64,000 nucleotides of DNA, taken from assembly GCA_040080065.1 (NCBI GenBank), contig JBEBJB010000028.1, forward strand, positions 1,495 to 65,494, given 5' to 3'. Below the pieces are notes generated by a model. The model was not told where the DNA came from. It saw nothing but the letters and a program-made list of their open reading frames with translations, and did no database searches. The position numbers and the translations under genes are program-made. This stretch comes from Pyrinomonadaceae bacterium. GTDB lineage: Bacteria > Acidobacteriota > Blastocatellia > Pyrinomonadales > Pyrinomonadaceae. Below, piece after piece: positions 11,566 to 57,663 of this stretch. Numbering within the stretch: the stretch's first letter is position 1; each line of letters starts with the position of its first letter.

Positions 11566-11662
11566 ATCGCCCCTACGGGGCTTAGGACTTTATTGTGAGC
11601 TAACCCCGGGTTCCGCTTTGCTTCACCCGGGGCTACATTCTGTCGCTGCTCCGCAGCTAAGA
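11566..11662. repeat. palindromic repeat (CCCCGGG...CCCGGGG type) in the ALDH-DUF779 spacer
   Basis: taaccccgggttccgctttgcttcacccggggcta followed by tgtcgctgctccgcagc. Resembles the short dispersed repeats at 42320-42562. Confidence 0.55.
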
Positions 11663-11666
11663 CCGA

Positions 11667-13178
11667 TTAGAAAAATCCCATCGCCTTCTTGTCGTATGAG
11701 ATAAGCATATTCTTCGTCTGGCGGTAATGGTCGAGCATCATTAAATGATTTTCGCGGCCAAATCCTGACTTTTTGTATCCGCCGAACGGGGCGTGTGCCG
11801 GGTAGTTGTGATAATTGTTTACCCAAACGCGGCCCGCCTGGATGGCACGCGGGACACGATAAAGCTCGTGAGCGTCGCGTGTCCAGACACCGGCTCCGAG
11901 GCCGTAGAGCGTATCGTTGGCGATGGCTATGGCTTCGTCGACATCCTTAAAGGTCGTGATGCATGTGACCGGGCCGAAAATCTCTTCCTGAAAGACACGC
12001 ATCTTATTGTGGCCTTTCAGCACGGTTGGTTCGATATAGTAGCCGTTTTCGAGGTCGGCATTTTTGTAGGCGTTGCCGCCGACTAGGACCTCGGCACCTT
12101 CGTCTTTGCCGATCTGGAGGTAATTGAGAATTTTCTCGTACTGATCCTGGCTCGCCTGTGCTCCCATCATCGTCGAAGGATCGAGCGGATGGCCCATTTT
12201 AATCTGTTTGACGCGTTCGATGAATCGTGGGATGAATTTGTCAGCGATCGATTCCTGCACCAGCACTCGCGAAGGGCACGTGCAGACCTCGCCCTGATTT
12301 AAAGCAAAAAGCGTCGCACCTTCCAGACACTTGTCGAAAAATTCATCGTCCGCATCCATCACGCTTTCGAAGAATATATTGGGCGATTTGCCGCCGAGTT
12401 CGAGCGTGACGGGAATGAGATTTTGCGAAGCGTACTGCATGATCAGGCGGCCGGTCGTGGTTTCGCCGGTGAAGGCGACCTTCGCGATGCGGTCGGATGT
12501 CGCAAGCGGTTTTCCGGCCTCGACGCCGAAGCCGTTGACGATATTTACCACGCCTTTTGGCAGCAGGTCACCGATCAGTTCGAAAAGCACCATGATCGAC
12601 GCCGGAGTTTGCTCGGCGGGTTTGATCACGACGCAGTTTCCGGCTGCGAGTGCCGGAGCGAGTTTCCAGGTAGCCATCAGGATCGGGAAATTCCACGGAA
12701 TGATCTGCCCTACGACGCCGAGCGGTTCTTTGATAATAACGGACAGCGTGTTCTGATCGAGTTCACTCGCCGAGCCTTCTTCAGCTCGAATGACGCTTGC
12801 GAAATAGCGAAAATGATCGATCGCCAGCGGAATATCCGCGGCCATCGTTTCGCGGATTGGCTTGCCGTTGTCCCACGTTTCTGCCCTGGCGAGCATCTCG
12901 AGATTCTGCTCCATCCGGTCCGCGATCTTGAGCAGGATATTGCTGCGTTCGGTCACGGAAGTCTTGCCCCACGTCGTAAACGCCCTATGGGCTGCGTCAA
13001 GAGCCGCATTTACGTCAGCTTCGTTGGAACGTGCAACCTTGGTGAACGACTTGCCGTCCACCGGCGAAATGCACTCAAAATACTCGCCGCTATTCGGAGC
13101 GGCCCACTCGCCGCCGATGTAGTTTTCGTACTGCTCTTTGAATTTTGGGATGTCGAAAGATTGTTTTGTCGATTCCAT
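11667..13178 (-). CDS. NAD(P)-dependent aldehyde dehydrogenase
   Basis: 503 aa. [12 protein letters not shown] and GEVCTCPSR (catalytic Cys) motifs, with ALDH-family pattern along the full length. Confidence 0.9.
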
Positions 13179-20326: not shown

Positions 20327-20403
20327 GGGGATGTAGCTCAGTTTGGCAGAGCGCTGCGTTCGCAATGCAGAGGTCGGGAGTTCGATCCTCCTCGTCTCCA
20401 CCA
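20327..20403 (+). tRNA. tRNA-Ala (anticodon CGC), CCA encoded
   Basis: GGGGATGTAGCTCAGTTTGGCAGAGCGCTGCGTTCGCAATGCAGAGGTCGGGAGTTCGATCCTCCTCGTCTCCACCA. Cloverleaf folds by hand, with the G3:U70 Ala identity pair and anticodon loop TTCGCAA. Confidence 0.9.
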
Positions 20404-20691: not shown

Positions 20692-20850
20692 CTATTTGGC
20701 CAAGTCTCGACCGTCGTCTCGCAGGGGGAGTTTCTCGACCCTTACCGAGTTTTCGAGGTCAGAAGACTGGAGAGCAACTGCCAATTCCCATAGCTGATCC
20801 AGCTCGATCATTCGCTGGGTCACGGCTTCTTTCGACATATCAACCTTCAT
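20692..20850 (-). CDS. hypothetical 52-aa protein, translationally coupled to the upstream nucleotidyltransferase-fold gene
   Basis: Own translation: MKVDMSKEAVTQRMIELDQLWELAVALQSSDLENSVRVEKLPLRDDGRDLAK. Its ATG overlaps the upstream stop (ATGA). Below the ORF-track length cutoff. Confidence 0.3.
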   Translation of the reverse strand: MKVDMSKEAVTQRMIELDQLWELAVALQSSDLENSVRVEKLPLRDDGRDLAK

Positions 20851-21308
20851 TTGCCTACTCCCCTCAGAAACTCCAGATCGATCAGATCTTTCGGCCGTCG
20901 GGCTCGCTCCTTCATGTCTATCATACCTTGCGTGTCAACCACGCGGTATTCGCCGTTATTCCATTTCACCAACCTTCTGCCACGCCAGGCACTCTCATAG
21001 ACCTCGGTCGCGAGAATCATATCGAGCGTGATCAGCGTTTTCGTTTTGGAATCTATCTTCGAAAGGCGCCTGATCAAAGTTTTGCCGCCGTCGAAATTCA
21101 GCGGTAGGCCATCGATATCAAATCCAAGGTCGATCGCTATTGTTTTTACATTTTCAAGATCCTCAGCGAGTATCAGAATATCAATATCGGTTGTTGCCCG
21201 CAGGAAACCATGGATAGCCATCGCCCAACCGCCGCAGACGGCATAGTCGATCTTTCGCACATTTAGAGCGTTGACGATCCGAACGAATTCTTCGAGCAGC
21301 GAGGCCAT
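20847..21308 (-). CDS. nucleotidyltransferase-fold protein (minimal NTase, TA/Abi-like)
   Basis: 153 aa. DYAVCGGWAMAIHGFLRATTDIDILI is a GG...TxDxD NTase signature. Confidence 0.55.
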   Translation of the reverse strand: MASLLEEFVRIVNALNVRKIDYAVCGGWAMAIHGFLRATTDIDILILAEDLENVKTIAIDLGFDIDGLPLNFDGGKTLIRRLSKIDSKTKTLITLDMILATEVYESAWRGRRLVKWNNGEYRVVDTQGMIDMKERARRPKDLIDLEFLRGVGK

Positions 21309-25018: not shown

Positions 25019-28000
25019 ATGAAAGCCACACGTCTACTCAGCAGTTTTCTCTCGATACTTATTGCTTACTCTTTAGTTGTTACCTCCGCGGTTAAGATCC
25101 CTCCGGAACCCGCTCGTTCGATAATTCAGGAATCTGCACCTACGGCCGGCGAACTTCTTATGATGGAAGAGCCGGCCGAGCTATTTCCGGGCTCCAACGG
25201 GCCGTTTCAGGAAGGCATCGATGCCGCGACAAAGAACTTCTTGAAGGGACTTTCCGGAACGCGCCTCGAGGTCGCGATGAGCGTGATCCAGACCGTAAAC
25301 AAGGCCGGCGGTAAAGTGGTTTTTGTCGGAAGCTGGATAAGCGGGAAGAATTTTGCCGATCCGCTACTTGGCGGAACGTCGGATTTCGACATGCGCGTGG
25401 TTTTCGATGGCAGTGAGGACCTCGCTAAGGCGAAATACAACCAGCTGCGACGCGAGATCACAAACCAGATCAATCAGCGTTTTGGCGCCGACGCCGCAAA
25501 GATATTGAAAAGCACGAATGTTTATCCGCCCGAAGTGATCCTCGAGGGCATCGATGATGCCGAAGAAGCATTGCAAAAACTAATGGATAAGGGCATCAAT
25601 CCTAATCTCGGCGGAGCCAGTACTGAAGGTCTATGGGGAAAGGGAGCGAAGGCTTTTCGCGATGCTTATGAAGCACAGGCAGGACGCGTGATCTGGAAAG
25701 AAGGAAACACGATCCGTTCCGGGCTCGCTGATCTGCTGCCGGCGTTAGAGAGCGCCGGGGTCTATACGATCGACGGAGCGGGAAATACTTCGCTGCAGTT
25801 CGTCGAAAAGATCGAGGATGCACTAAAAGCGGGCGATACGAAAAGTGCGGCAAAGAGCCTCGACCGCCTTCGAAAAATGATGAGAAAAGGCCGGGATCTG
25901 GGCCGGTTTGGCGAGGCGACCTATCTCGATGACATTTTGCGGGAATGCTGCCAGTCTTTGCAGCTCGTCAATGGCAAAGAGGCGCTTGTGATCGATCTCA
26001 AAAAGGCTGCTGAGGAGCTTGCAAAACCAAGCGTAAGAGAAGGCCTGGGAAACAGTCTTCGCCGGGCGAAGATCGAGGCCGAGCTGCTCATAAAATTCGC
26101 TTCTGAGACCAATCCGCAGACGCTCCAAGCCATCCGGGAAATGCTTCAGGCCGGCTCAGGCAAGTGGAAGCGGGTGATGGAAGCCTTTCTTCACTACGGA
26201 GGACGAGTAGCGGAGATCGGAGGTAAAGTTCGTTGGGACCTCGCGTTGAAAGGGTTCTTCGGCTTTCTAATGGTTTTGCAGGCTAAGGATTACCTGAAGA
26301 AAGCCACGCAGGGAGATCTCGAAGGGCTCGTCCAGAATATACTCCTTGATGCGACCTTTATGGTCTCGTCGAAATTTGTGATCGGGTTTGTGCCATTGAT
26401 ATTGAAGGCGATCATGGATGACGCGATCGCGGCTGGCTACAACATAGTCACGGCCCAGCAGGAATGCCGGGATCTGATCGCGGGAATTTATGAGGTCAAG
26501 GGCCGCGAATCGCTCGATGTGAATCAACGCACCGAACGGAGCATCGAGCAACTCGCTACGTTATATACAGAGGAATCCAAAGTACTCGAGGTCGTTGCCG
26601 TACACGCCAGAAATGCGTCCGTTAGAAATAATAAAGCCGACCCTGAGATCGAGAGCATTCTCAACGACAAATGCGGCCCTGAGATCGTCAGCCGATGGCG
26701 AACGCGCCGGATCGAACTGATCGCGGACGCAATTGATGTGTTGAAGAAAGTTGAGAGCGATTTCAACGCGAGCATGCTGATCGCAAACGCGGAACCTGAC
26801 GAAGTGACGCTTATTCCGGATCAGGAAAGCGAAGTCAACGTAAAAGCGACCTTCGAGGGAAGTACTCAAAATATTCAGAAAGGCCTCGCGGAATTTGATA
26901 AGCGGATGCGGCTGCTCGGCGGCCAGGACAAACTGGTTGCCGTTGAGGTCACGCAGGTATATCGCTGGAAACCATTCAATCTAACTGAGGAAGAGAGTTG
27001 GTCACCTGTATTTCCGGTCTTCGCACCGGAAAAAGCGGCGAGAAAATTCAAATTTACCGGAGATACGATAAAGATCCTCCGATTTGAGTACGAATTGAAC
27101 ATCGACGTAAAAACCATCGCCGATGACGTACTGAGTGCCAAATCAGAACTCGATAAACAGCTAACTAAATCGGTTCCCTTCAATATCATCGTTCATCGGC
27201 AATCGGGCGAGCTAGATATTGGCGTTTCACCTAACCCGGAACCCGAAAAGACTATAACGCTGACCGCGATCCTCGATGACGAGCTGAAGAAGATCAAAGA
27301 CCGCCGACTTGCATGGACCGACCTGACAGTCGGCGGCAGCCCGAAAGCGGGCGATTCGTTCTCTTTCACGCTCCCGGAAAACAGTTCCAAAAACGTACGC
27401 CTCGAAGCGTTTGCCAAGGTGAACGGCGTCGAGGTGAGGATCGCTCAAGCTGAAAAGGCTGTGAGCGTTGGTAAAAAAGTCACGAAACCATCGCCCACTC
27501 CGACGCCCGCAGATCAGGTGGTCGATACGCGAAAGCTGATGTTCGCGGGATCCGTTCCGGGAATCTGGGATGGAGGAAACAATGCTCAGGGTTTTGATCT
27601 GGCCCGACAGCACGCGAAAACCAAAACGCCCGGCGAATGCCAATGGGAAGCTCAGGTGCATTCCGAGGTGTGGGGAAGGATAAACCCGTCATTTGCTCCT
27701 CGAACGGCGGCCGAGCTAGCCCAAAAGATCGATGATCTTGTTGCTGACGCTAAGCGTTGGGGATTTACGCTGAAGGTTCGAAGCTACGCAATCGGCGACT
27801 TCAAGGGACAATTTGTCGATTCGTCAGTCAAGTTCTCTAATGGCGCATGGGTTGGATATGGGTACAACGCAGACGGCGTGCAAGCTTATGGCCGCGGTTG
27901 GGCGATCAAGGGACGGGATGTCGTTGAGGTCGGTTATAACGCCGGCGGCTCAGGATGCTGGACGAACGTTGATCGCGGTTTTCTCGAAGCTCACACCGCA

Positions 28001-31000
28001 TCCGCTCAGTCAGAAGCGATCGGGATCGTGAACAGTCTCGCGCTCGTTGAGAAAGGTGAATTCAAGAAAATACCTTATACCGGGCCGAAACTCGATGGTT
28101 CGGATCTGCCGAAGGTGACGTTTTCGCCGCCTTCGCTCGAAAAGCTGAAGGTCGGGGAATCCGCTCGTGTGACGGTGATGGTCGAGAATGCCAAAGCGGA
28201 AGATTCGCCGTTCAAATACGGCTGGGGTGGTGTTTTCGAAGGGAAACCGGAAACCTCGCGAGATGTTGCAACGGTTACCGTCAAGGCTGCAAAGCCCGGC
28301 AAGTTCCCTCTGTCAGTTGGCGTCGAGGGAAACAGGTACTTTCTCGGCTCCGCTTATCTAGAATACGAAGTAGCCGACTATAAGGCAATCATCAAGCAGG
28401 ACAAGCCGAACACGCGAAAGGTTGCGGTCGGCACGCCGGTAATATTTTCAGCTCAGGTACTCTCAAGCGGAGCTCCGGCGACAGGCAATTTTGTCTATCA
28501 GTGGCAGCCGAATCCCGAAGTCACATTCGATCCGGTCGAAGGCCCGAAAAATACGGCGATCGCAACGTTTAACCGTCCAGGCCTGACGAAGGTCTGGGTC
28601 GAGGTCTTTGAAAAAAAGGGCCAGGTTCTCGTGCCCCTCGCCGAAGCCGATCAAATAGAGGTTGAGGTCGTAAATCCGGATCTGAAAGTGGTATTCACAC
28701 CTGAAAAGGGCTTTATCGGTAAAGAGGTAAAAGTCCGCGTCGAGGTTACGCCGCCAGAGTTGAAAGACATCGACTTTCGCTGGCAAATTACCGCAAATGG
28801 CAGACTGACGTTCGAATCTCAGGATAAACGTGAGATCACGTTCATTCCACAGAATGCAGAGCCTGTGACGGTAATGGTCAGAGCTCGCGTTCAGGGTAAA
28901 GGCGACGATTTTGGCGAGAAATCGGGCACTTTTACGGCAGAAAAATACGATGTAAAGGTCAACGTTCTCGGTCCGGAAGGCCCGAAACCGCAGATCTGGA
29001 GGGAAGGCGTTGGGCTGGTGCCGCTGGAGAAGGGAATTGCCGTTCATCAGTTCGTCGGAATGCGTGCTGAGGTTACGCCAGCGGTGGAGGGAGCAAGATA
29101 TGAATGGTCCGTTAACGAAGACACGCATTTCGAGAGCAACAATATTTCTCAGCAGATCAGGCTGTCACGCAGCCAGGTCGGCACCGGCATCGCGACGGTA
29201 ATTGTTCGTGATATGAACGGTATCGAACTCGGTCGGGCGAGCAATTCGTTTGATGTCTCGGTTTCACAGGCAGATCTGGATAAGCGGCCAAAGGCCACTC
29301 CGACCCCAACTCCGAGGCCGACGCCAAAACCGACGCCTGTTACGATTCCTTCGTCGAAATTTGCCACGAGGCTCATCCAGGGCGAAGCAATGTCAGGCGA
29401 AGCGCGGGAGACGCAAGGGCCGAGAGGTAACAAGTCCTGGCCGTTTACGCTGCGGATAACCAGCTACGATCCCGCGACAGGCTCTGTCGAAGGCGAGATC
29501 TCGTGGCCGAGCCTGCAATCGGTGCATCGGGTTCGCGGCAATTTCTCGGGAAACACATTAGAGCTTACGGAGAAGGAAGCGATAAAAGCAGGCCAGGCTC
29601 ACTTGAATGTCGACTACACGATAAATGTTACTGACAGCGGAGCAACAGGCACGTACAGCGACCATGCTGACAATACCGAAGGCTCGGTCAGAATGCCCGC
29701 GACGAGCGAAACGGGCACGGGCAATCCTGCCGCAACCGCTATCAAACAGGGCGATACGCTCTACGACAACGGAAAATATCAACAGGCAATAGACGCCTAC
29801 AACGATGCTCTTTCGTCGGATCCGAATTCTGCAGCGGCTTATGCCGGTCGCTGTCTTGCCAAGCGCAGCCTACAGGATAGTGCTGGAGCTTTGGCGGACT
29901 GCAATCAGGCACTCAAGCTCGATCCGAACAACGCGAGTGCGTATCGCGGAAGGAGCATGATCAAACGGGGTAATAATGACTTCAATGGAGCGGTGGCGGA
30001 CGCGACGCGGGCTATTCAGATCGATCCTAACGATTATAAATCATATCTAACACGCGGACTCGCAAAGGACGCACTGAAAGACTACGCCGGAGCTGCCGCT
30101 GACTACGATCGTTCACTCCAGATAAATCCAAATTACCCGAACGGCTATTCCTACCGCGGTCTGACGAGGATTAATCTCGGTGACAATCGCGGAGCGCTAT
30201 CCGATCTCGACAAGTATATCTCGATGAATCCGTCGAGCAGTTCGGCGTTTAATAATCGTGGGCTGGCCAAGGAGCGGCTGGGTGATATTCCGGGAGCTGT
30301 CGCGGATTATGAAAAGGCGATTGCACTCGACCCAAAGAATGAGACGGCGAGGAGGAATCTTGCCACTCTAAAAGGTAAATCTACAGGCTCTCCGAAGGCC
30401 GGTTTGTATCGCATTGATGGCAGCGGAGTCACTTTTGAGTTATCTGCCATAACTCCGAACACCATGAGAGTCCGTCAATGGCAGACGATGACGCCCGAAC
30501 CGCCGGAAAGGGGCGGCAGTTACTACAACGCCGGAACCGCTACTTTGCTTGGCGACGGCATTACATGGCGAACGAAAAATCGTGACGTTGAGGGATACTG
30601 CTGTGGCAACAATGTCGAATTCGAGTTTCAATTCCTCTCTCCAACAAGCTTTAAGGGCATCCGTTACCGATTATGGCCATTGGGCAGCCCGTCACCGGGA
30701 GCGAATGATTCCTGGCAGGCTCATCCGCCCGACGAATTTCGGTTGGTCGGAAACGTGCCGAATTCGACAGTGATTTTGCCCACCGCAACGCCGATTACTG
30801 TCTCGTCGGCCACGACAGAAACGGTCATTTTCAAGAACACAAATATCGGCGGAGTAAATAACGGGCCGACGGCTGCGACTCAGTTCACGATATCGACTCC
30901 GCATATGATCACATATGTTTTTACGTATCACTGGAACGATGGCCGCGGAGCCGTTCGTCCCGGCACGATCTCGCTGCGGAGGTCAGACGGTACGATCTAT

Positions 31001-31540
31001 GGCCCATGGAGCACGACGGGAACTGCCGGACAGGGCGGCGTACCTAACGCGAATTGGGAAGCCCATCCAAATACCGTAATCCCCGCAGGCACATACACGA
31101 TCGTCGATTCCAGCCCGTCAACCTGGGCACAGAATGGCGAAAGCGGCGGCCGCGGACACGCGATCGTCAAGGGCTATCCCAGTGGCAGAACGCCCGTTGC
31201 CGATCCGGTTTCGACCGTTAAGCCGACTCCAACGCCACCGAAACAGCCCGTGTCGATCAGCGGACGTTACATTACCGCGATATTCGAAAATCGGTCCGGC
31301 GAGGCGGTTCATATATTCGCCGAGGGGCTGAACTTCGGCCCGGAAAACAAACTCGCTCCGGGAGAAAAGCGTGAGGTGCGGGTCTTAATGACGGCGACGG
31401 GGCGGATCAAGTTTATCTCAGGCCGTAGCGGACAGGTCATCGCTACCAAATTCTGGGACGGCGATCCGGAAGCTCTTAGCCGTTACCCACGTGTCATTTT
31501 TGACGGTTCCCAGTTGCTCATCACGACAGGACTGCGTTGA
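25019..31540 (+). CDS. giant exported multidomain protein (2,173 aa): NTase-like motif, hydrophobic hairpin, Ig-like repeats, TPRs, unnamed beta domains
   Basis: Start chosen at ATG 25019 (GGGAGG 4 nt upstream; MKATRLLSSFLSILIAYSLVVTSAV signal/anchor). GSWISGK...TSDFDMRVVF; hydrophobic segment 26234-26413; about 5 Ig-like repeats 28106-29269; PT linkers; about 6 TPRs 29741-30373; YHWNDGRG...PSTWAQN domain 30806-31177. Confidence 0.8.
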   Translation: MKATRLLSSFLSILIAYSLVVTSAVKIPPEPARSIIQESAPTAGELLMMEEPAELFPGSNGPFQEGIDAATKNFLKGLSGTRLEVAMSVIQTVNKAGGKVVFVGSWISGKNFADPLLGGTSDFDMRVVFDGSEDLAKAKYNQLRREITNQINQRFGADAAKILKSTNVYPPEVILEGIDDAEEALQKLMDKGINPNLGGASTEGLWGKGAKAFRDAYEAQAGRVIWKEGNTIRSGLADLLPALESAGVYTIDGAGNTSLQFVEKIEDALKAGDTKSAAKSLDRLRKMMRKGRDLGRFGEATYLDDILRECCQSLQLVNGKEALVIDLKKAAEELAKPSVREGLGNSLRRAKIEAELLIKFASETNPQTLQAIREMLQAGSGKWKRVMEAFLHYGGRVAEIGGKVRWDLALKGFFGFLMVLQAKDYLKKATQGDLEGLVQNILLDATFMVSSKFVIGFVPLILKAIMDDAIAAGYNIVTAQQECRDLIAGIYEVKGRESLDVNQRTERSIEQLATLYTEESKVLEVVAVHARNASVRNNKADPEIESILNDKCGPEIVSRWRTRRIELIADAIDVLKKVESDFNASMLIANAEPDEVTLIPDQESEVNVKATFEGSTQNIQKGLAEFDKRMRLLGGQDKLVAVEVTQVYRWKPFNLTEEESWSPVFPVFAPEKAARKFKFTGDTIKILRFEYELNIDVKTIADDVLSAKSELDKQLTKSVPFNIIVHRQSGELDIGVSPNPEPEKTITLTAILDDELKKIKDRRLAWTDLTVGGSPKAGDSFSFTLPENSSKNVRLEAFAKVNGVEVRIAQAEKAVSVGKKVTKPSPTPTPADQVVDTRKLMFAGSVPGIWDGGNNAQGFDLARQHAKTKTPGECQWEAQVHSEVWGRINPSFAPRTAAELAQKIDDLVADAKRWGFTLKVRSYAIGDFKGQFVDSSVKFSNGAWVGYGYNADGVQAYGRGWAIKGRDVVEVGYNAGGSGCWTNVDRGFLEAHTASAQSEAIGIVNSLALVEKGEFKKIPYTGPKLDGSDLPKVTFSPPSLEKLKVGESARVTVMVENAKAEDSPFKYGWGGVFEGKPETSRDVATVTVKAAKPGKFPLSVGVEGNRYFLGSAYLEYEVADYKAIIKQDKPNTRKVAVGTPVIFSAQVLSSGAPATGNFVYQWQPNPEVTFDPVEGPKNTAIATFNRPGLTKVWVEVFEKKGQVLVPLAEADQIEVEVVNPDLKVVFTPEKGFIGKEVKVRVEVTPPELKDIDFRWQITANGRLTFESQDKREITFIPQNAEPVTVMVRARVQGKGDDFGEKSGTFTAEKYDVKVNVLGPEGPKPQIWREGVGLVPLEKGIAVHQFVGMRAEVTPAVEGARYEWSVNEDTHFESNNISQQIRLSRSQVGTGIATVIVRDMNGIELGRASNSFDVSVSQADLDKRPKATPTPTPRPTPKPTPVTIPSSKFATRLIQGEAMSGEARETQGPRGNKSWPFTLRITSYDPATGSVEGEISWPSLQSVHRVRGNFSGNTLELTEKEAIKAGQAHLNVDYTINVTDSGATGTYSDHADNTEGSVRMPATSETGTGNPAATAIKQGDTLYDNGKYQQAIDAYNDALSSDPNSAAAYAGRCLAKRSLQDSAGALADCNQALKLDPNNASAYRGRSMIKRGNNDFNGAVADATRAIQIDPNDYKSYLTRGLAKDALKDYAGAAADYDRSLQINPNYPNGYSYRGLTRINLGDNRGALSDLDKYISMNPSSSSAFNNRGLAKERLGDIPGAVADYEKAIALDPKNETARRNLATLKGKSTGSPKAGLYRIDGSGVTFELSAITPNTMRVRQWQTMTPEPPERGGSYYNAGTATLLGDGITWRTKNRDVEGYCCGNNVEFEFQFLSPTSFKGIRYRLWPLGSPSPGANDSWQAHPPDEFRLVGNVPNSTVILPTATPITVSSATTETVIFKNTNIGGVNNGPTAATQFTISTPHMITYVFTYHWNDGRGAVRPGTISLRRSDGTIYGPWSTTGTAGQGGVPNANWEAHPNTVIPAGTYTIVDSSPSTWAQNGESGGRGHAIVKGYPSGRTPVADPVSTVKPTPTPPKQPVSISGRYITAIFENRSGEAVHIFAEGLNFGPENKLAPGEKREVRVLMTATGRIKFISGRSGQVIATKFWDGDPEALSRYPRVIFDGSQLLITTGLR

Positions 31541-31568
31541 CGCATTTTGTCGTGGAGGAGGTTTTATC

Positions 31569-32891
31569 ATGCTTAGACTAATTATTCTATTTACGACATT
31601 CGCTCTAGCGGCAACATCGACGCTTTCTCAGGGTGCTTTCAAACCTCGGGATGCAGATGAGGAGCAGGCTTGGCGAATTCACACGTCCTATAAAGAGGGC
31701 AGGAAAAAGGAGGACGAGTTAACACGACAGATCGCTCTTTTGCGACGTGATATCGCCAATTCGTCTGTCAGCACGATCGGCGTCTTCGGCAGCGACGCCA
31801 AGGATCGCGAGCGGTTAACAAAGATGCGAGAGCAGCTCACGGCCGAGCAGGCCAAGCTCAGAAAACTCGAAACCGATTGGGATCAGAAATTTTACGGACG
31901 TTATGGCCACCTACAGGATTCCGATGCGACGATCGTCGATCCCGTGACAAAGCGGACAATGGATAAGGTCGAATTTCGCCTCATCAATTTCCCGTTCAAC
32001 GACGTGAAGAAAAAAGAACCCTTGCCCACAACCTCCGGCATCTGGAGAAAGATTCGCGAAAAATTCTGGCCCTTCACCTCAACACCTAATGAGCCAGACG
32101 AAAATCAGGAGGAAAGCGGCGCTCCATACGATATCACGTACGTAAACAACTATTACGACCGAAACGGCACCCGACGTTGGCAAAAAGATACTTCACATGC
32201 GATGTGCCGCTTAGATCTCATCGACGCAGACCGCGTTGCCGCTGGGCAAAAAGTAAAGGTTCATTGTTCGCTTAACTACAAGGCGGAACACTACACGAGT
32301 GGAGCTATGGCGTCTTTTTGGGCCGGCGAACCGGCGATCGAATTTCCAAATGGCTTCAAGCAGGACGGATCGCTATATCCGATGTGGGGCTACTTCACGG
32401 AGCCGGTGCTTCGGGTTAGTGCCGGAAACAATGCCACGGGCGAAGCATCGGGTGAGTTTTCATTTCCGGCGGGCCCGAGGTCTGATAAGTCTCCGTTCTG
32501 CGTGAAACTCACCTCGGGCACACACGGTACCGCAGCCGCCGAGGTTTGCTACGAATGGCAGGCGGGCTCGACTGCACGGGAACTCAAACAGTCCACAAAA
32601 TGGGAAGGTCAATGGCAATCCACGTGGGGAAATATTTCAATAACGCAGGCGGGGAATAGCATAACGGGAACCTATGAGCACGACAACGGCCGGATCGTAG
32701 GCACCATTGTCGGAAACAAGATCGTCGGCACGTGGTCCGAGGGGCCAACTTTCACGGCTCCGGACGATGCAGGCGATCTGGAGTTCACACTTTCAGCCGA
32801 CGGCAGCGGCTTTACCGGTCGATGGCGATACGGTTCAAACGGTGCGTGGCAGACGAAGGAATGGACAGGTACGAGGGCAGGAATTCGATGA
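31569..32891 (+). CDS. secreted protein, paralog 1 of an unnamed N-module family (440 aa)
   Basis: GGAGGAGG 7 nt before the ATG; signal peptide MLRLIILFTTFALAATSTLSQG. The N-module GAFKPRDADEEQAWRIH...GRYGHL...DPVTKRTMDKVEFRLINFPF is shared with 32915 and 34792. W/G-rich beta C-terminus. Confidence 0.75.
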   Translation: MLRLIILFTTFALAATSTLSQGAFKPRDADEEQAWRIHTSYKEGRKKEDELTRQIALLRRDIANSSVSTIGVFGSDAKDRERLTKMREQLTAEQAKLRKLETDWDQKFYGRYGHLQDSDATIVDPVTKRTMDKVEFRLINFPFNDVKKKEPLPTTSGIWRKIREKFWPFTSTPNEPDENQEESGAPYDITYVNNYYDRNGTRRWQKDTSHAMCRLDLIDADRVAAGQKVKVHCSLNYKAEHYTSGAMASFWAGEPAIEFPNGFKQDGSLYPMWGYFTEPVLRVSAGNNATGEASGEFSFPAGPRSDKSPFCVKLTSGTHGTAAAEVCYEWQAGSTARELKQSTKWEGQWQSTWGNISITQAGNSITGTYEHDNGRIVGTIVGNKIVGTWSEGPTFTAPDDAGDLEFTLSADGSGFTGRWRYGSNGAWQTKEWTGTRAGIR

Positions 32892-32914
32892 CCGTTCTTG
32901 GTAAGGAGGATAAT

Positions 32915-34279
32915 ATGCTGCAAAAGCTTCTCAATTTGATCGTGATATTGATCGCGATGTTTGCAGTTGCGGCGGGACAGGGAACATTCAGGCCACGTGA
33001 TTCTGACGAAGAGCAGGCCTGGCGGATCTACAACGGATACAAGGCAAGCAAAAAGCTCGTTGCGGAGCTTCAGCCTAAGATCCGTCAGGTGCAGAGCGAT
33101 ATTGATAACGCTTCACAGAGCTCCATAGGAGCACTCGGAGCACATCCCGAAGACGTGGCAAATCGCAACGCAATGCAGGCTCAGGTGAAAGCCGAGCAAA
33201 AACGACAGGCGGATCTGCTTGCTTCGTGGCAAAAGAAATTTGCCGGAAGATACGGCGATCTTAAGTGGTGCGATGAACAAATACGCGACCCGAAAACGAA
33301 TCGGGACATGGATCGGATAGAGTTTGCCCTCACGTATTTCGCATTCAATTACAAGCCCGAACCACCGAAGGCTGTAACGCCAACGGCCGTGGTTCCGGTC
33401 AAACCAACGCCTCCCGCAGCCTCGGCATCGACCAGCCTGACGCTGGAACTTCCGGGGTACTGGGGCCATCTCAGCTACACGATCTCAGGAGCCAGACTCG
33501 ATCCGCCAACCGGATCGGATCGCGGCAACGTCGGCGGCAGGCAATACAAAGGCGAACTCACAGGAAGCACTCTCACTGTCTCGGGAAATGCAGTGAGCGA
33601 CAATCCGTCGAGCGGTCCTGGTTCGATGGATTACTACGAGATCGTCGTTTCCGTCGATGTCGGGAAGGAGAAAAAATACTACGGATACATTGCCCAGAAA
33701 GGCGAGAAACTCAGCAAAGCATTCTCACTGACAGTGCCCGTGACGCCCGGGGCGTCAGGAAGCTTCAGCATAAGTTTGATGGAACAAAACGCGAATTATG
33801 GGCCGCACGGCTGGCTCGTTACTGGCAGCCTCGCACCGATGAAAGCAGGAAGTACACCCGCAAAGGCGACGACCACAACAACTGTCACCAACAAACCGCC
33901 ACCGAACAACACTGCGACAATTCCAGCGGGCGAACCCGTAACTTTTTTCAAAACCGGCAACGATTACGCAGTCTCAAATGGCGGTACGCCGCCTAGTTTT
34001 GTGGCAAAAGCCCCAGTAACGATCACGCAGATAATGACATACCACTGGAACGGCGGTCGGGGATCGAATGGAGGAACGATCGCGTTACAAAATTCAGACG
34101 GCAAGGTCTTCGGGCCGTGGGTCGTGAGCGTTCGGAACGGTGTCTATTGGGAAGTTAACCGAAAAATAACGCTGCCGCCGGGAACCTACTCAGTTATCGA
34201 TTCTGAGCCGTCAACATGGGCACAGAACACGGCAAGCGGCGGCAAGGGAATGGTCGAGATCAAGGGACTAAAGCCCTGA
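32915..34279 (+). CDS. secreted protein, paralog 2 of the N-module family (454 aa) with C-terminal YHWN domain
   Basis: AAGGAGGA before the ATG; signal peptide. N-module GTFRPRDSDEEQAWRIY...GRYGDL...DPKTNRDMDRIEFALTYFAF. C-terminus MTYHWNGGRG...GTYSVIDSEPSTWAQNTASGGKG is homologous to 30806-31177 of the giant protein. Confidence 0.75.
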   Translation: MLQKLLNLIVILIAMFAVAAGQGTFRPRDSDEEQAWRIYNGYKASKKLVAELQPKIRQVQSDIDNASQSSIGALGAHPEDVANRNAMQAQVKAEQKRQADLLASWQKKFAGRYGDLKWCDEQIRDPKTNRDMDRIEFALTYFAFNYKPEPPKAVTPTAVVPVKPTPPAASASTSLTLELPGYWGHLSYTISGARLDPPTGSDRGNVGGRQYKGELTGSTLTVSGNAVSDNPSSGPGSMDYYEIVVSVDVGKEKKYYGYIAQKGEKLSKAFSLTVPVTPGASGSFSISLMEQNANYGPHGWLVTGSLAPMKAGSTPAKATTTTTVTNKPPPNNTATIPAGEPVTFFKTGNDYAVSNGGTPPSFVAKAPVTITQIMTYHWNGGRGSNGGTIALQNSDGKVFGPWVVSVRNGVYWEVNRKITLPPGTYSVIDSEPSTWAQNTASGGKGMVEIKGLKP

Positions 34280-34318
34280 TACTTTGTCATTCGAGCAGCG
34301 AAATAGGAGGTCAAGAAG

Positions 34319-34750
34319 ATGAATAAGCCATTGATGATGTTTATATTACTTGTCGCTTCGGCAATTGCGGCATCTGGCCAGTCCGGCACGATATCGGGAA
34401 AGCTGGCCTATCCGAGCGACGGCATTCCACGCGACATGATCTTATGCGTTAAGGCAACGAATCTTTACGCAGAGCCGGTCTATTGTTCTGACAACAAAGC
34501 CACAGCCCCGCGCAATGCAAAAGTCAGTTTCAAATTGAATCTAAGGACGGCAACCTACAAGATCGACCTTCCGGCGGGAACTTATCTGCTTTACGCAATG
34601 ACCGGCGAAATGCGCGGACACAAGGCGTATTATAATGAATTTGTGAAATGCGGCATGAGTGTCGATTGCCATTCGAAAAAGGCGATCCCTGTAAAGGTCA
34701 AAGCCGGGCAGAAGGTTAAAGGCATCACGGTTGGCGACTTTTGGGAGTGA
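34319..34750 (+). CDS. small secreted protein (143 aa), beta-sandwich-like
   Basis: AGGAGG 8 nt upstream; signal peptide MNKPLMMFILLVASAIAASGQ. TISGKLAYP...YKIDLPAGTYLLYA resembles carboxypeptidase-regulatory-like folds (weak). Confidence 0.65.
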   Translation: MNKPLMMFILLVASAIAASGQSGTISGKLAYPSDGIPRDMILCVKATNLYAEPVYCSDNKATAPRNAKVSFKLNLRTATYKIDLPAGTYLLYAMTGEMRGHKAYYNEFVKCGMSVDCHSKKAIPVKVKAGQKVKGITVGDFWE

Positions 34751-34791
34751 TTGACGACAGGTTATCGATAGTAAGGAGGCTCGGAAAAGAT

Positions 34792-35676
34792 ATGTTTTCA
34801 AAGATCGTCGCAATTGTCGCTTTTGTTTTCTTCATCGGCTCGTCGATCTTGGTCGCCTCGGGGCAAGAGCCTTTCAAACCTCGTAGCGGGGCAGAGACGC
34901 AGGCTTGGAGATTCTACCAACAATTCAAGGAAAGCAAAGCGAACGAGGCCAGGCTTAAGAACGCTATTACTCAGGCAAAAGGAGACTACTCGGACATATC
35001 ACAAAGCTCGATCGGCGGCCTCGCCGGGATCATCACCGGCGAGGCGACGGATCTGGCGAATTTGAGAAGGGAACTGGCCATTGAATTGGCTCTCCAGCAT
35101 CAACTGCTTGAGATCTGGGGAAAGACATTCTTCTGGAGATATGGCGAACTCAAGGACGTCGACCGTCCGGTGAACGACAAGACCTCCGGAAGAAGAATGG
35201 ATCGCGTGGAATACGCTATACGGAACTTTCCTTTCTATCGGGATCAGGTAACAGCCGCAGGTACTTCCGTAACCGCAGAAAAAGGTTCGGCAGAAGCGTG
35301 GTCGCACCTACGCGTGTCGTTGTCCAATGTGATCGACTTCAAGTCAGCTGATTCCCCAGGATGGCGAAACAACGGGACGCGTTTTACTGGAAAGGCGGCA
35401 CGACAGGGAAAGGTTCCGGTTCGGGTCGAGATCGTCGGAAAAGGCGGAGTCTCATATTTTGACTACGACTTTAGCGTTTCCGTAAACGCGCAAGGTGGAG
35501 CCGTCTTGCTGAACGAGAAAGGGAAATTGTCAAAGGATGGAGGGATAAAGACTTTCAGCTTTGAATGGGATCCAAATGTGAATCCAGGATCGCTAAGCAT
35601 TATGGTAAATATCGGCGGCGGTAATCCCGAGAGTTTTGTCTATTACGTATCGGGTACGATCGAGGCACTGCCGTAA
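34792..35676 (+). CDS. secreted protein, paralog 3 of the N-module family (294 aa)
   Basis: AAGGAGG upstream; signal peptide. N-module EPFKPRSGAETQAWRFY...WRYGEL...DKTSGRRMDRVEYAIRNFPF. Distinct beta-rich C-terminus. Confidence 0.75.
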   Translation: MFSKIVAIVAFVFFIGSSILVASGQEPFKPRSGAETQAWRFYQQFKESKANEARLKNAITQAKGDYSDISQSSIGGLAGIITGEATDLANLRRELAIELALQHQLLEIWGKTFFWRYGELKDVDRPVNDKTSGRRMDRVEYAIRNFPFYRDQVTAAGTSVTAEKGSAEAWSHLRVSLSNVIDFKSADSPGWRNNGTRFTGKAARQGKVPVRVEIVGKGGVSYFDYDFSVSVNAQGGAVLLNEKGKLSKDGGIKTFSFEWDPNVNPGSLSIMVNIGGGNPESFVYYVSGTIEALP

Positions 35677-56538: not shown

Positions 56539-57150
56539 CTAGCTCCACTTCCCTAAAGCGAAGTTCGTGTTAACAGATGCACTTCGCGAATGTAATGCCC
56601 CAGGTATCCGTTTGTTAACCATCTTGGCGGCTATGCACACAAATAACGTGCTTGCCGCAGCTTGTCTTACAGCGTATTCAGCCATCGTAATGCGGCTAAT
56701 TGCCTGTGGCTTTTTAAGCGCAGGGCGCCCGCCTTTCATTCCATTCGCTCTTGCCGCGATTGCTTTAGCAGAAGTCTTTTTACTCCCACCAAGCCGTGCG
56801 ATCGCTTTCATCCATTCCTTCGTGCCAAAAATATTTGCGGCTAATCCTGCTACTGTGTAATGAGCGTTAAGATTATCCCAATGGATTGCATCTCCCGATT
56901 TTGTAACATAACCCTTTCGAATCTCAGCCGCAGAAGCATTTCTAAGTTCCTTTATTTTATAAACTGGGAAATCGATTCGGATGCCGTCTTTAGCTCTTAC
57001 TGATAAGACTCGCCCTTTCGGAATAAACCTGTATGAAAGGGCAACGGGCTTATCCTTTACGTAGTCCTTATAAAGTGACTTACCGTGCTGGATTTGCGCA
57101 TCTAATTCATCGTCGGTGAAAACCCACTCGCCGTTAACTTTTTTTGCCAT
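56539..57150 (-). CDS. DUF2442-domain protein with extended basic C-terminal tail
   Basis: 203 aa. LSVRAKDGIRIDFPVYKIKELRNASAAEIRKGYVTKSGDAIHWDNLNAHYTVAGL is DUF2442-like. It is followed by ARLGGSKKTSAKAIAARANGMKGGRP. Confidence 0.6.
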   Translation of the reverse strand: MAKKVNGEWVFTDDELDAQIQHGKSLYKDYVKDKPVALSYRFIPKGRVLSVRAKDGIRIDFPVYKIKELRNASAAEIRKGYVTKSGDAIHWDNLNAHYTVAGLAANIFGTKEWMKAIARLGGSKKTSAKAIAARANGMKGGRPALKKPQAISRITMAEYAVRQAAASTLFVCIAAKMVNKRIPGALHSRSASVNTNFALGKWS

Positions 57151-57577: not shown

Positions 57578-57663
57578 TGCGGACGGCGGGATTCGAACCC
57601 ACAAAACCCTGCTAGGTCGCTCGTTTCCTGAACGAGTGCGGTTACCAGTTTCGCCACGTCCGC
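57578..57663 (-). tRNA. type-II (long variable arm) tRNA, Leu-like, with non-canonical anticodon loop; no encoded CCA
   Basis: Minus strand: GCGGACGTGGCGAAACTGGTAACCGCACTCGTTCAGGAAACGAGCGACCTAGCAGGGTTTTGTGGGTTCGAATCCCGCCGTCCGCA. The Leu-like D-arm and discriminator A are present. The best 5-bp anticodon stem leaves loop UCAGGAA (C33, AGG), although CAG is present one nt out of register. Confidence 0.7.

Follow-up and report, generated by a model that had tools for sequence, protein, structure and literature searches.

Organization of the five-gene cluster

The window analyzed here is a 64,000-nucleotide stretch of contig JBEBJB010000028.1 (assembly GCA_040080065.1) from a bacterium of the Pyrinomonadaceae, a family of the Acidobacteriota, class Blastocatellia. 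Within it lies a cluster of five co-directional genes, g1 to g5, headed by the gene for a giant protein (Table 1). An earlier note on this DNA, made from its letters alone, had described five plus-strand genes spaced by 23 to 41 bp, and both the open reading frames (ORFs) and the gaps (28, 23, 39, and 41 bp, in order from g1 to g5) were reproduced. A GGAGG or GGAGGAGG box is present approximately 5 to 12 nt upstream of every ATG, as that note had also observed. Scans for promoter and terminator patterns performed no better than on shuffled sequence; the five genes are probably co-transcribed. The public record identical to g1, from a Pyrinomonadaceae metagenome-assembled genome (MAG), is annotated only as "tetratricopeptide repeat protein."

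The N termini of all five products consist of a short basic n-region, a hydrophobic h-region, and a c-region of small residues, with 19-residue Kyte-Doolittle (KD) peaks of 1.7 to 2.6 within the first ~30 residues. Direct reading and the hydropathy peaks therefore agree with the signal-peptide-like hydrophobic N terminus that had been ascribed to every product. AxA-like sites were read directly from these N termini (TSA, SQG, GQG, and ASG), and the same reading found no lipobox cysteine in g1 to g5. The products look Sec-exported, with putative signal peptides whose cleavage sites are placed by reading only.

Table 1. Genes of the cluster and modules of g1 (positions in the window; residue numbers refer to the encoded proteins)
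Feature	Position	Strand	Description
g1	25019..31540	+	2173-aa putatively exported mosaic giant; NCBI MEQ1606098.1
g1 signal-peptide-like N terminus, aa 1-24	25019..25090	+	MKATR, hydrophobic core, TSA; KD peak 1.96
g1 core, aa 62-741	25202..27241	+	Nucleotidyltransferase-like alpha/beta domain, helical domain, 43-residue helix, beta-sandwich
G104-S105-W106...S121-D122-F-D124 motif	25328..25390	+	GS, S121, D122, and D124 invariant in 71 homologs
Hydrophobic helical hairpin with polar turn, aa 403-473	26225..26437	+	Family-wide hydropathy
g1 aa 742-1035	27242..28123	+	Beta domain, PT linker, alpha/beta domain; direct reading, no family matches
Four divergent PKD/Ig-like repeats, aa 1036-1420	28124..29278	+	~95-aa units marked by [FY]xW
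About six tetratricopeptide repeats, aa 1570-1790	29726..30388	+	Pfam and PDB consensus repeat
g1 "YHWN" beta domain, aa 1914-2052	30758..31174	+	Common to g3; BLASTP, hhalign
g1 C-terminal domain, aa 2075-2173	31241..31537	+	Seen stand-alone with YHWN in the 269-aa P0079
g2	31569..32891	+	440 aa; N-module aa 1-150 and C-terminal GxW-rich beta domain aa ~338-436
g3	32915..34279	+	454 aa; N-module 1-150, mid beta domain 160-310, YHWN 335-452
g4	34319..34750	+	143 aa; small putatively exported 4-Cys protein
g5	34792..35676	+	294 aa; N-module and beta domain aa 160-294

Modular architecture of the giant protein

The g1 protein is a mosaic in which the conserved family core is limited to the first ~740 residues. 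The about six tetratricopeptide repeats (TPRs) recognized previously were recovered, with several TPR models of Pfam exceeding their cut-offs over the block (TPR_1, E = 3e-28; TPR_2, 5e-26) and a consensus TPR of the PDB matching at 3.5e-55. The Ig-like block, likewise recognized before, reads as four units of ~95 residues each rather than about five. In g1 it yields only sub-threshold Pfam matches (GldM_3rd, 0.012; CshA, 0.017); homologous blocks in 11 of 24 family giants score as PKD, at E values down to 6e-20. A BLAST self-comparison of g1 gave no internal repeats at E < 1, as the Ig units are too divergent. Scans of g1 to g5 against Pfam, NCBIfam, PADLOC, and PHROGs returned TPRs only, and PDB sequence and profile searches with g1, its core, the nucleotidyltransferase (NTase)-like region, the g3 family, and the g4 family returned only TPRs and chance-level helical or de novo proteins. 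The view that the modules other than the TPR and Ig-like pieces belong to no named family thus held across all of these databases.

The Ig block of g1 is 56% identical to that of a different giant in a related locus, L030. There, a 1,755-aa protein carries the equivalent of g1 residues 1032 to 1321 (L030 18790-21299) behind a different N-terminal head, and this head is a stand-alone 419-aa protein in L031 (12463-13722; 34% identity). The pair of loci points to head swapping on a common stalk. A conserved stretch at g1 residues 203 to 218, EGLWGKGAKAFRDAYE (window 25625-25672), has a weak likeness to three repeats of the cell-wall-binding CW_7 type in a lysozyme (PDB 5i8l), with an E value of 0.008 for the whole chain and each single repeat insignificant.

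Extent and conservation of the core family

Using a profile of g1 residues 1 to 741 in an exhaustive HMMER search, 251 clusters (represented at 50% identity) were found at E ≤ 1e-3 among 1.84 billion, 181 of them at ≤1e-30. A word-indexed search with g1 residues 1 to 1029 had returned only 7 homologs and missed an ortholog of 84% identity; the apparent rarity of the core in that search is thus an artefact. Among the 150 proteins listed, the core lies at the N terminus in essentially all cases, after a signal-peptide-like segment, and the proteins fall into two size classes, ~750 to 1000 aa and 1700 to 2450 aa. Members were identified in Pyrinomonadaceae and other Acidobacteriota, in Opitutaceae and other Verrucomicrobiota, in Thiobacillus, Ideonella, and other Pseudomonadota, and in Desulfovibrionales and "Deltaproteobacteria," where they are publicly named "TPR repeat protein," "coiled-coil domain-containing protein," or "hypothetical." Literature searches gave no description of the family. 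Residues 62 to 741 of g1 are the core of an undescribed, multi-phylum family of predicted exported proteins.

Across 71 diverse members, 13 positions are invariant (in g1 numbering, G104, S105, S121, D122, D124, Y169, P171, P195, G204, K279, R283, G489, and W560), and six more are at least 90% conserved (W106, N167, E203, E218, Q260, and R564). The C-terminal extensions of 24 family giants are of adhesin type, with TPRs in 14 and PKD domains in 11, plus SprB, I-set, Big_9, and Cadherin_5. Pfam EAD11 (effector-associated domain 11; best E = 9e-7) was also scored in two of the 24, and MIT in two. Both are normally cytoplasmic helical domains, and the scores may be spurious matches to helical repeats.

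Predicted structure of the core and its likeness to nucleotidyltransferases

A first AlphaFold model of the core, built from 7 sequences, had a predicted local distance difference test (pLDDT) score of 62, and a fold search on it was meaningless. With 71 sequences, the AlphaFold (AF2) model reached a pLDDT of 85 and a predicted template modeling score (pTM) of 0.82. In this model, a helix (residues 80 to 96) and a strand (99 to 103) lead into G104-S105 and a short helix, a strand runs from D122/D124 (123 to 128), and a long helix (133 to 164) is followed by a strand bearing N167 and Y169 (166 to 169), two further strands, and an all-helical domain. The model ends with the hydrophobic hairpin, predicted at low confidence (~403 to 473), a 43-residue helix (542 to 584), and a beta-sandwich (586 to 727). 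Foldseek searches with the pLDDT-85 model gave no match in the PDB or BFVD at E ≤ 1e-3.

The GS...SDFD region, which had been called NTase-like from the letters, is present as described and invariant in the family. V-G104-S105 follows the predicted strand 99 to 103 in the manner of an hG[GS] turn, and D122-F-D124-M opens the predicted strand 123 to 128 as a [DE]h[DE]h motif. The model thus has the helix-strand-GS-helix-strand(DxD)-helix-strand order and the motif positions of a Pol-beta-type NTase, followed as in those enzymes by a helical domain. Weak NTase entries appeared in all three fold searches (3c18_B, 4ebk_A, and a phage Mater NTase; E values of 0.28 to 3.1), the best for the pLDDT-85 model being 4ebk_A at 0.67 and the phage NTase at 0.28. 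An hhalign comparison of the core with kanamycin nucleotidyltransferase placed both motifs in register (E = 0.017; probability, 2.7%).

The core differs from Pol-beta-like NTases in several respects. The spacing between GS and DxD is 16 residues, compared with 9 to 13 in the canonical enzymes. At the position of the third carboxylate, the predicted strand 166 to 169 carries N167, at least 90% conserved, and the invariant Y169, with no conserved Asp or Glu; the conserved E203 and E218 lie away from this strand. Further, the core is predicted to be exported, and the NTase-like domain is welded to a helical/beta module of ~450 residues that includes the hydrophobic hairpin. As the fold matches are weak, no NTase was matched in profile searches of Pfam, NCBIfam, or the PDB, and an Asn stands at the third-carboxylate position, the assignment is not established, and the domain is best called NTase-like, with membership unproven.

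The hairpin, which the earlier note had placed at 26234 to 26413, was recovered as KD peaks at residues 440 to 473 and a family-wide hydrophobic stretch at residues 403 to 430, with a median maximal 19-residue hydropathy of ~1.5 across the family. It is the best-conserved segment of g1, being 95% identical to its counterpart in the relative's locus L009, and it forms the low-pLDDT zone of an otherwise confident model. It may touch the membrane or be a buried element of the core. Colicin pore-forming domains and the diphtheria toxin T domain share with the core, as predicted, both export and a hydrophobic helix-turn-helix within an all-helical domain. However, no sequence or fold match to them was obtained, and the hairpin helices of the core include charged residues and are of borderline hydropathy.

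The N-module proteins and g4

That the three mid-size genes share an N-terminal module was solidly reproduced by BLASTP for g2, g3, and g5, over ~130 to 150 residues (E = 1e-32 for g2/g3, 7e-21 for g2/g5, and 6e-25 for g3/g5). Of the 82 proteins that matched in a search with g3, almost all come from Pyrinomonadaceae-type Acidobacteriota; the g2/g3/g5 family, as seen here, is limited to Pyrinomonadaceae/Blastocatellia-type Acidobacteriota. Mapping of the 82 matches divides g3 into three independent modules, namely the N-module, the mid domain, and YHWN. The tails that accompany the N-module include YHWN, the g2 C-terminal domain, PAN_4, TPR with TonB_C, and FecR with YHWN. In proteins that lack the N-module, the mid and YHWN domains are found beside FecR, PKD, TIR_2, or Zn-phospholipase C. 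For the N-module, the mid domain, YHWN, the g2 tail, and g4, no relatives were found among Pfam families or PDB sequences. Orthologs of g5 were identified in L009 (69% identity) and L007 (41%).

YHWN is fused to TIR_2, and the mid domain to a Zn-dependent phospholipase C, in P0078 and P0060. In other proteins, the tails may therefore direct effectors to their targets.

The g4 family comprises 35 clusters of ~142-aa proteins with conserved cysteines. A g4-like gene lies directly 3' of an N-module gene in the window and in L009, L007, L006, L030, and L031, making g4 the most constant neighbor of N-module genes and the N-module gene plus g4 the tightest pair observed. These g4-like genes are 51 to 65% identical whether they follow N-module genes with YHWN tails (window, L007, and L030) or with a non-YHWN tail (L031). 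Distant g4 homologs (35 to 48% identity) sit in unrelated contexts, and the pairing is thus restricted to closer relatives. Distant homologs of 35 to 38% identity (P0299 to P0301; L033 8001-8513) have a longer N-terminal membrane anchor in place of a cleavable signal peptide, and one of them directly follows an N_methyl/NHL-repeat protein.

Shared C-terminal domains on two N-terminal heads

The earlier note had also proposed that the giant and one mid-size protein have a C-terminal domain in common, and this was upheld by the YHWN match between g3 residues 330 to 451 and g1 residues 1914 to 2052 (BLASTP, 41% identity, E = 6e-28). Comparison of the g3 family with the giants using hhalign supported the YHWN relationship with a probability of 96%. 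YHWN is found at the C termini of ten core-family giants, one of them from an Ideonella MAG. The sharing extends to other tails: the g2 C-terminal domain ends the core-family proteins P0092 (E = 2e-15) and P0139 (E = 3e-22) as well as occurring in the N-module protein P0038, and the mid domain is weakly matched in the core-family protein P0167. The possibility that the N-module is itself a hidden piece of the giant was rejected, as YHWN was the sole part common to the g3 family and the giants by hhalign.

These relationships fit a pair of alternative N-terminal heads (core and N-module) that draw on one repertoire of C-terminal tails better than they fit the scaffold with interchangeable partners that had been envisaged. 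On the simplest reading, the beta-rich tails would be targeting or binding modules, and the core and N-module would be alternative functional or anchoring heads.

Conservation and linkage of the genes

In a relative, the locus L009/L010 carries the five genes in identical order (giant, g2, g3, g4, g5) beside polA. Amino acid identity to L009 is 84% for g1, 83% for g2, 78% for g3, 59% for g4, and 69% for g5, with 92% for the flanking PolA; the cluster genes thus evolve faster than the flanking housekeeping genes. The ratio of nonsynonymous to synonymous substitution rates (dN/dS), calculated for g1 to g3 only, is ~0.06 relative to L009, with dS saturated; g1 to g3 are under purifying selection, and the cluster consists of functional genes. 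Within g1, the N-terminal two-thirds are 87 to 95% identical to the L009 ortholog and the C-terminal third is 56 to 78% identical, as would be expected of ligand-facing modules.

Beyond L009/L010, the set is partly rearranged or split. In L007/L008, where g3 is 63% identical and the flanks are different, the order is giant, FG-GAP_3, DUF3160, g5-like, g3-like, and g4-like. L006 has g2-like, g3-like, and g4-like genes and no giant within 10 kb, and L030 and L031 each have an N-module gene with a g4-like gene and no core giant. In L029, an N-module gene accompanies FG-GAP_3 and DUF3160 genes, with both the giant and a g4-like gene absent. Conversely, the giant of L011, also from Pyrinomonadaceae, has no N-module or g4 partners, and no such partners were found at 15 core loci outside Pyrinomonadaceae/Pyrinomonadales (L013-L027, L003). 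The association of giant and partners was therefore seen in three lineages and two chromosomal contexts and is facultative. The co-occurrence expected in other genomes was seen as the full order in L009/L010 and as a partial set in L007/L008; in L006, L029 to L031, and L011, the genes are split. The pair formed by an FG-GAP_3-like protein (~210 aa) and a DUF3160 protein (~690 aa) was noted with N-module genes at L007 6358-9074 and L029 11289-13983 (64% and 82% identity), and it may be a further optional component of such clusters.

Such splitting raises the question of whether there is a dedicated system at all. The giant may instead simply lie beside an independent g2-g5 unit, both having arisen from a large, fast-shuffling, lineage-specific pool of secreted modular proteins from which the shared domains are drawn. 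The N-module and g4 without a giant in L006, L030, and L031, the lone giant of L011, the fusion of YHWN and mid domains to FecR, PAN_4, PKD, TIR_2, and Zn-phospholipase C in many unrelated architectures, the g1-type Ig block on a different head in L030, and the lack of conserved core neighbors across phyla all agree with this. Set against it are the gaps of only 23 to 41 bp with no terminator signal, the five-gene order kept at saturated dS, and the recurrence of giant plus partners in another chromosomal neighborhood (L007/L008), which is hard to explain without selection for linkage. We consider independence of the giant and the g2-g5 unit unlikely on balance, although a serious contender.

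An all-against-all ORF comparison of 18 genome loci (L011 to L028) found no conserved neighbor of the core. TPRs recur with it, either fused to it, as in g1, or encoded next to it by a gene of their own, as in L001 and L027. In 4 of the 18 loci (L016, L019, L021, and L024), the core gene has GGDEF/EAL or GGDEF/HD-GYP genes within a few kb, a proximity that may be due to chance, and the core gene of L016 overlaps at its end with a GH5-domain gene.

Neighbors of these kinds, with a Laminin_G_3 gene after the core gene in L022 and an N-module gene after an exopolysaccharide export cluster (GNVR, Bac_transf, and Poly_export) in L029, would suit a core that acts as a periplasmic or inner-membrane-associated envelope factor, for example, in the handling of exopolysaccharide or biofilm matrix. 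Its NTase-like domain would then work on a periplasmic substrate, and the Pyrinomonadaceae additions would serve in matrix binding. However, GGDEF/EAL genes are very common, none of the GGDEF/EAL-, GH5-, or Laminin_G_3-type neighbors is conserved, and the window itself contains no comparable genes. An envelope factor of this type is regarded as very unlikely, the least probable of the explanations considered.

Proposed function and comparison with known systems

The explanation that we favor, tentatively and with somewhat less than even confidence, is that the five Sec-exported proteins make up an envelope or surface binding assembly of the Pyrinomonadaceae bacterium built on the principle of two heads with shared tails. 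The first head would be the ~680-residue core of g1, consisting of the NTase-like domain (GS...SDxD, K279, and R283), the helical domain enclosing the hairpin, the long helix, and the beta-sandwich, and the second would be the N-module of g2, g3, and g5; both would carry beta-rich C-terminal domains of one pool, namely YHWN, the g2 C-terminal domain, and the mid domain. Once exported, g1 would associate with a membrane via its hairpin and present its binding modules, TPR and YHWN, on a stalk made up of beta domains, PT linkers, and the four Ig/PKD repeats. The g2, g3, and g5 proteins, joined by g4 as a small and constant partner, would be accessory binders that reach the same ligand or ligands through their shared tails. 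They and g4 may also dock on g1, for which the TPR block is the obvious candidate site. Membrane association, stalk geometry, ligand binding, contact between g1 and its partners, and NTase-like catalysis are inferred.

Several points weigh against this explanation. N-module genes occur without giants (L006, L029, L030, and L031), with g4-like genes in all of these but L029, and giants occur without N-module or g4 genes (L011 and every locus outside Pyrinomonadaceae/Pyrinomonadales). That the five proteins touch one another is inferred only, and that YHWN and the other tails bind ligands is guessed from their richness in beta structure and their domain promiscuity. Charged residues occur in the hairpin, whose hydropathy is borderline for a membrane span (family median, ~1.5), so that it could be a buried core element; an exported NTase would have no obvious supply of nucleotides; and no route across the outer membrane was identified. 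Of the dedicated extracellular or surface multi-protein system that the earlier note had put forward, the export-type N termini, the module sharing, and a recurrent gene set stand; an indivisible system does not, the link to the giant being facultative.

Modular adhesin-like surface proteins resemble g1 in their signal peptide, PT-rich linkers, Ig/PKD block, and beta-sandwich tip domains, and they resemble other family giants in SprB, I-set, Big_9, and Cadherin_5 repeats. They differ in that Pfam and NCBIfam identified no LPXTG, PEP-CTERM, type IX secretion system C-terminal domain, autotransporter, or RTX motif in g1, and in that the conserved part of the core family is the enzyme-like N-terminal core and not the repeats. 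With the scaffoldin and dockerin proteins of cellulosomes, the cluster shares a giant with repeated Ig-like modules beside smaller exported proteins that have one module in common. However, no cohesin or dockerin was matched in Pfam, the partners lack catalytic domains, the shared module is N-terminal and ~130 aa long, and the Ig repeats are mutually very divergent.

Polymorphic toxin systems, reportedly treated by Zhang and coworkers in 2012, are a further comparison. As in those systems, the cluster encodes exported paralogs that keep one N-terminal module and differ in their C-terminal domains, with a small gene (g4) behind them. In contrast, no toxin family was matched by g1 to g5 in Pfam, NCBIfam, PADLOC, or PHROGs, and no T5, T6, or T7 secretion, PAAR, Rhs, or LXG marker was found among the scanned window genes or related loci. 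Nor does g4 behave as a cognate immunity gene, since it is predicted to be exported and remains the same (51 to 65% identity) behind different tails. With no toxin domains, no secretion-system markers, and no covariation of g4 with the tails, the suggestion of a polymorphic effector set has no support.

A related proposal, that the core is a self-delivering A-T-B effector, would assign the NTase fold to A, the hairpin-bearing helical domain to T, and the variable C-terminal part to a receptor-binding B, with g2, g3, and g5 as alternative targeting subunits. Predicted export, the invariant GS...SDxD, Lys, and Arg residues, a hydrophobic hairpin in a helical domain that is flexible in the model and may recall the T domains of colicins and diphtheria toxin, the variable, faster-evolving C-terminal part, the occurrence of the core mostly alone and with no conserved partner, and the fusion of tail-domain relatives to TIR_2 and Zn-phospholipase C are all compatible with it. 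Yet the absence of toxin families, of secretion-system markers, and of a covarying immunity-like gene applies here as well, the head is under strong purifying rather than diversifying selection, NTase membership is unestablished (N167 at the third-carboxylate position and no significant fold or profile match), and the cluster lies among housekeeping genes at ordinary GC content. The proposal is accordingly judged improbable. Quite improbable, too, is a broader version in which the core would be a new class of exported NTase-fold enzyme with a membrane-inserting hairpin, which in Pyrinomonadaceae would use the N-module proteins and g4 as interchangeable subunits for targeting or regulation, and which would act as either a self-translocating (A-T-B) effector or an extracytoplasmic nucleotide-transfer or signaling machine.

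Operons of modular exported or surface proteins are of an already known kind. The most valuable result is the undescribed, multi-phylum family of predicted exported proteins whose confidently modeled core has no significant neighbor in the PDB or BFVD, followed by the modular head/tail logic seen in Pyrinomonadaceae. Activity of the NTase-like site would make it an unusual instance of nucleotide transfer outside the cytoplasm; if the site is inactive, the core would be a new domain for the anchoring or architecture of giant surface proteins. In soil, the Acidobacteriota rank with the most abundant bacteria, and to our knowledge their surface and secreted proteins are almost uncharacterized; the pattern of two heads with shared tails offers a testable route to the ligands that such bacteria bind.

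Genomic context and other features of the window

The cluster is flanked by a divergent PNPOx-family gene on one side and by the convergent polA on the other, and the wider neighborhood consists of housekeeping genes (ftsK, comEC, purH, a prfB-like gene, and lnt). With these flanks and the ordinary GC content, the possibility of a mobile element or island was rejected. A defense system was also rejected, as the PADLOC scan of the five proteins gave no match, and so was a phage origin, only the TPR region having been matched in PHROGs.

Elsewhere in the window, a match to the Acido-Lenti-1 small RNA at 11604-11658 (+) scored 37.3 bits, compared with an Rfam gathering score of 37, and adjoins an opposite-strand gene for an aldehyde dehydrogenase (11667-13178); it speaks for an acidobacterial source of the DNA. 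A 152-aa ORF at 20847-21305 (-), next to tRNA-Ala (20327-20403), covers only positions 55 to 123 of the 249 in the NTP_transf_5 profile and has the look of a truncated gene, or a fragment of one, for an "uncharacterised nucleotidyltransferase." Between 56000 and 60000, the GC content is 0.44 to 0.46, compared with ~0.53 elsewhere. This low-GC zone holds a DUF2442 gene (56539-57150) and an unusually long (86 nt) tRNA-Pro(AGG) at 57578-57663 (-), and it may be a small element integrated at the tRNA.

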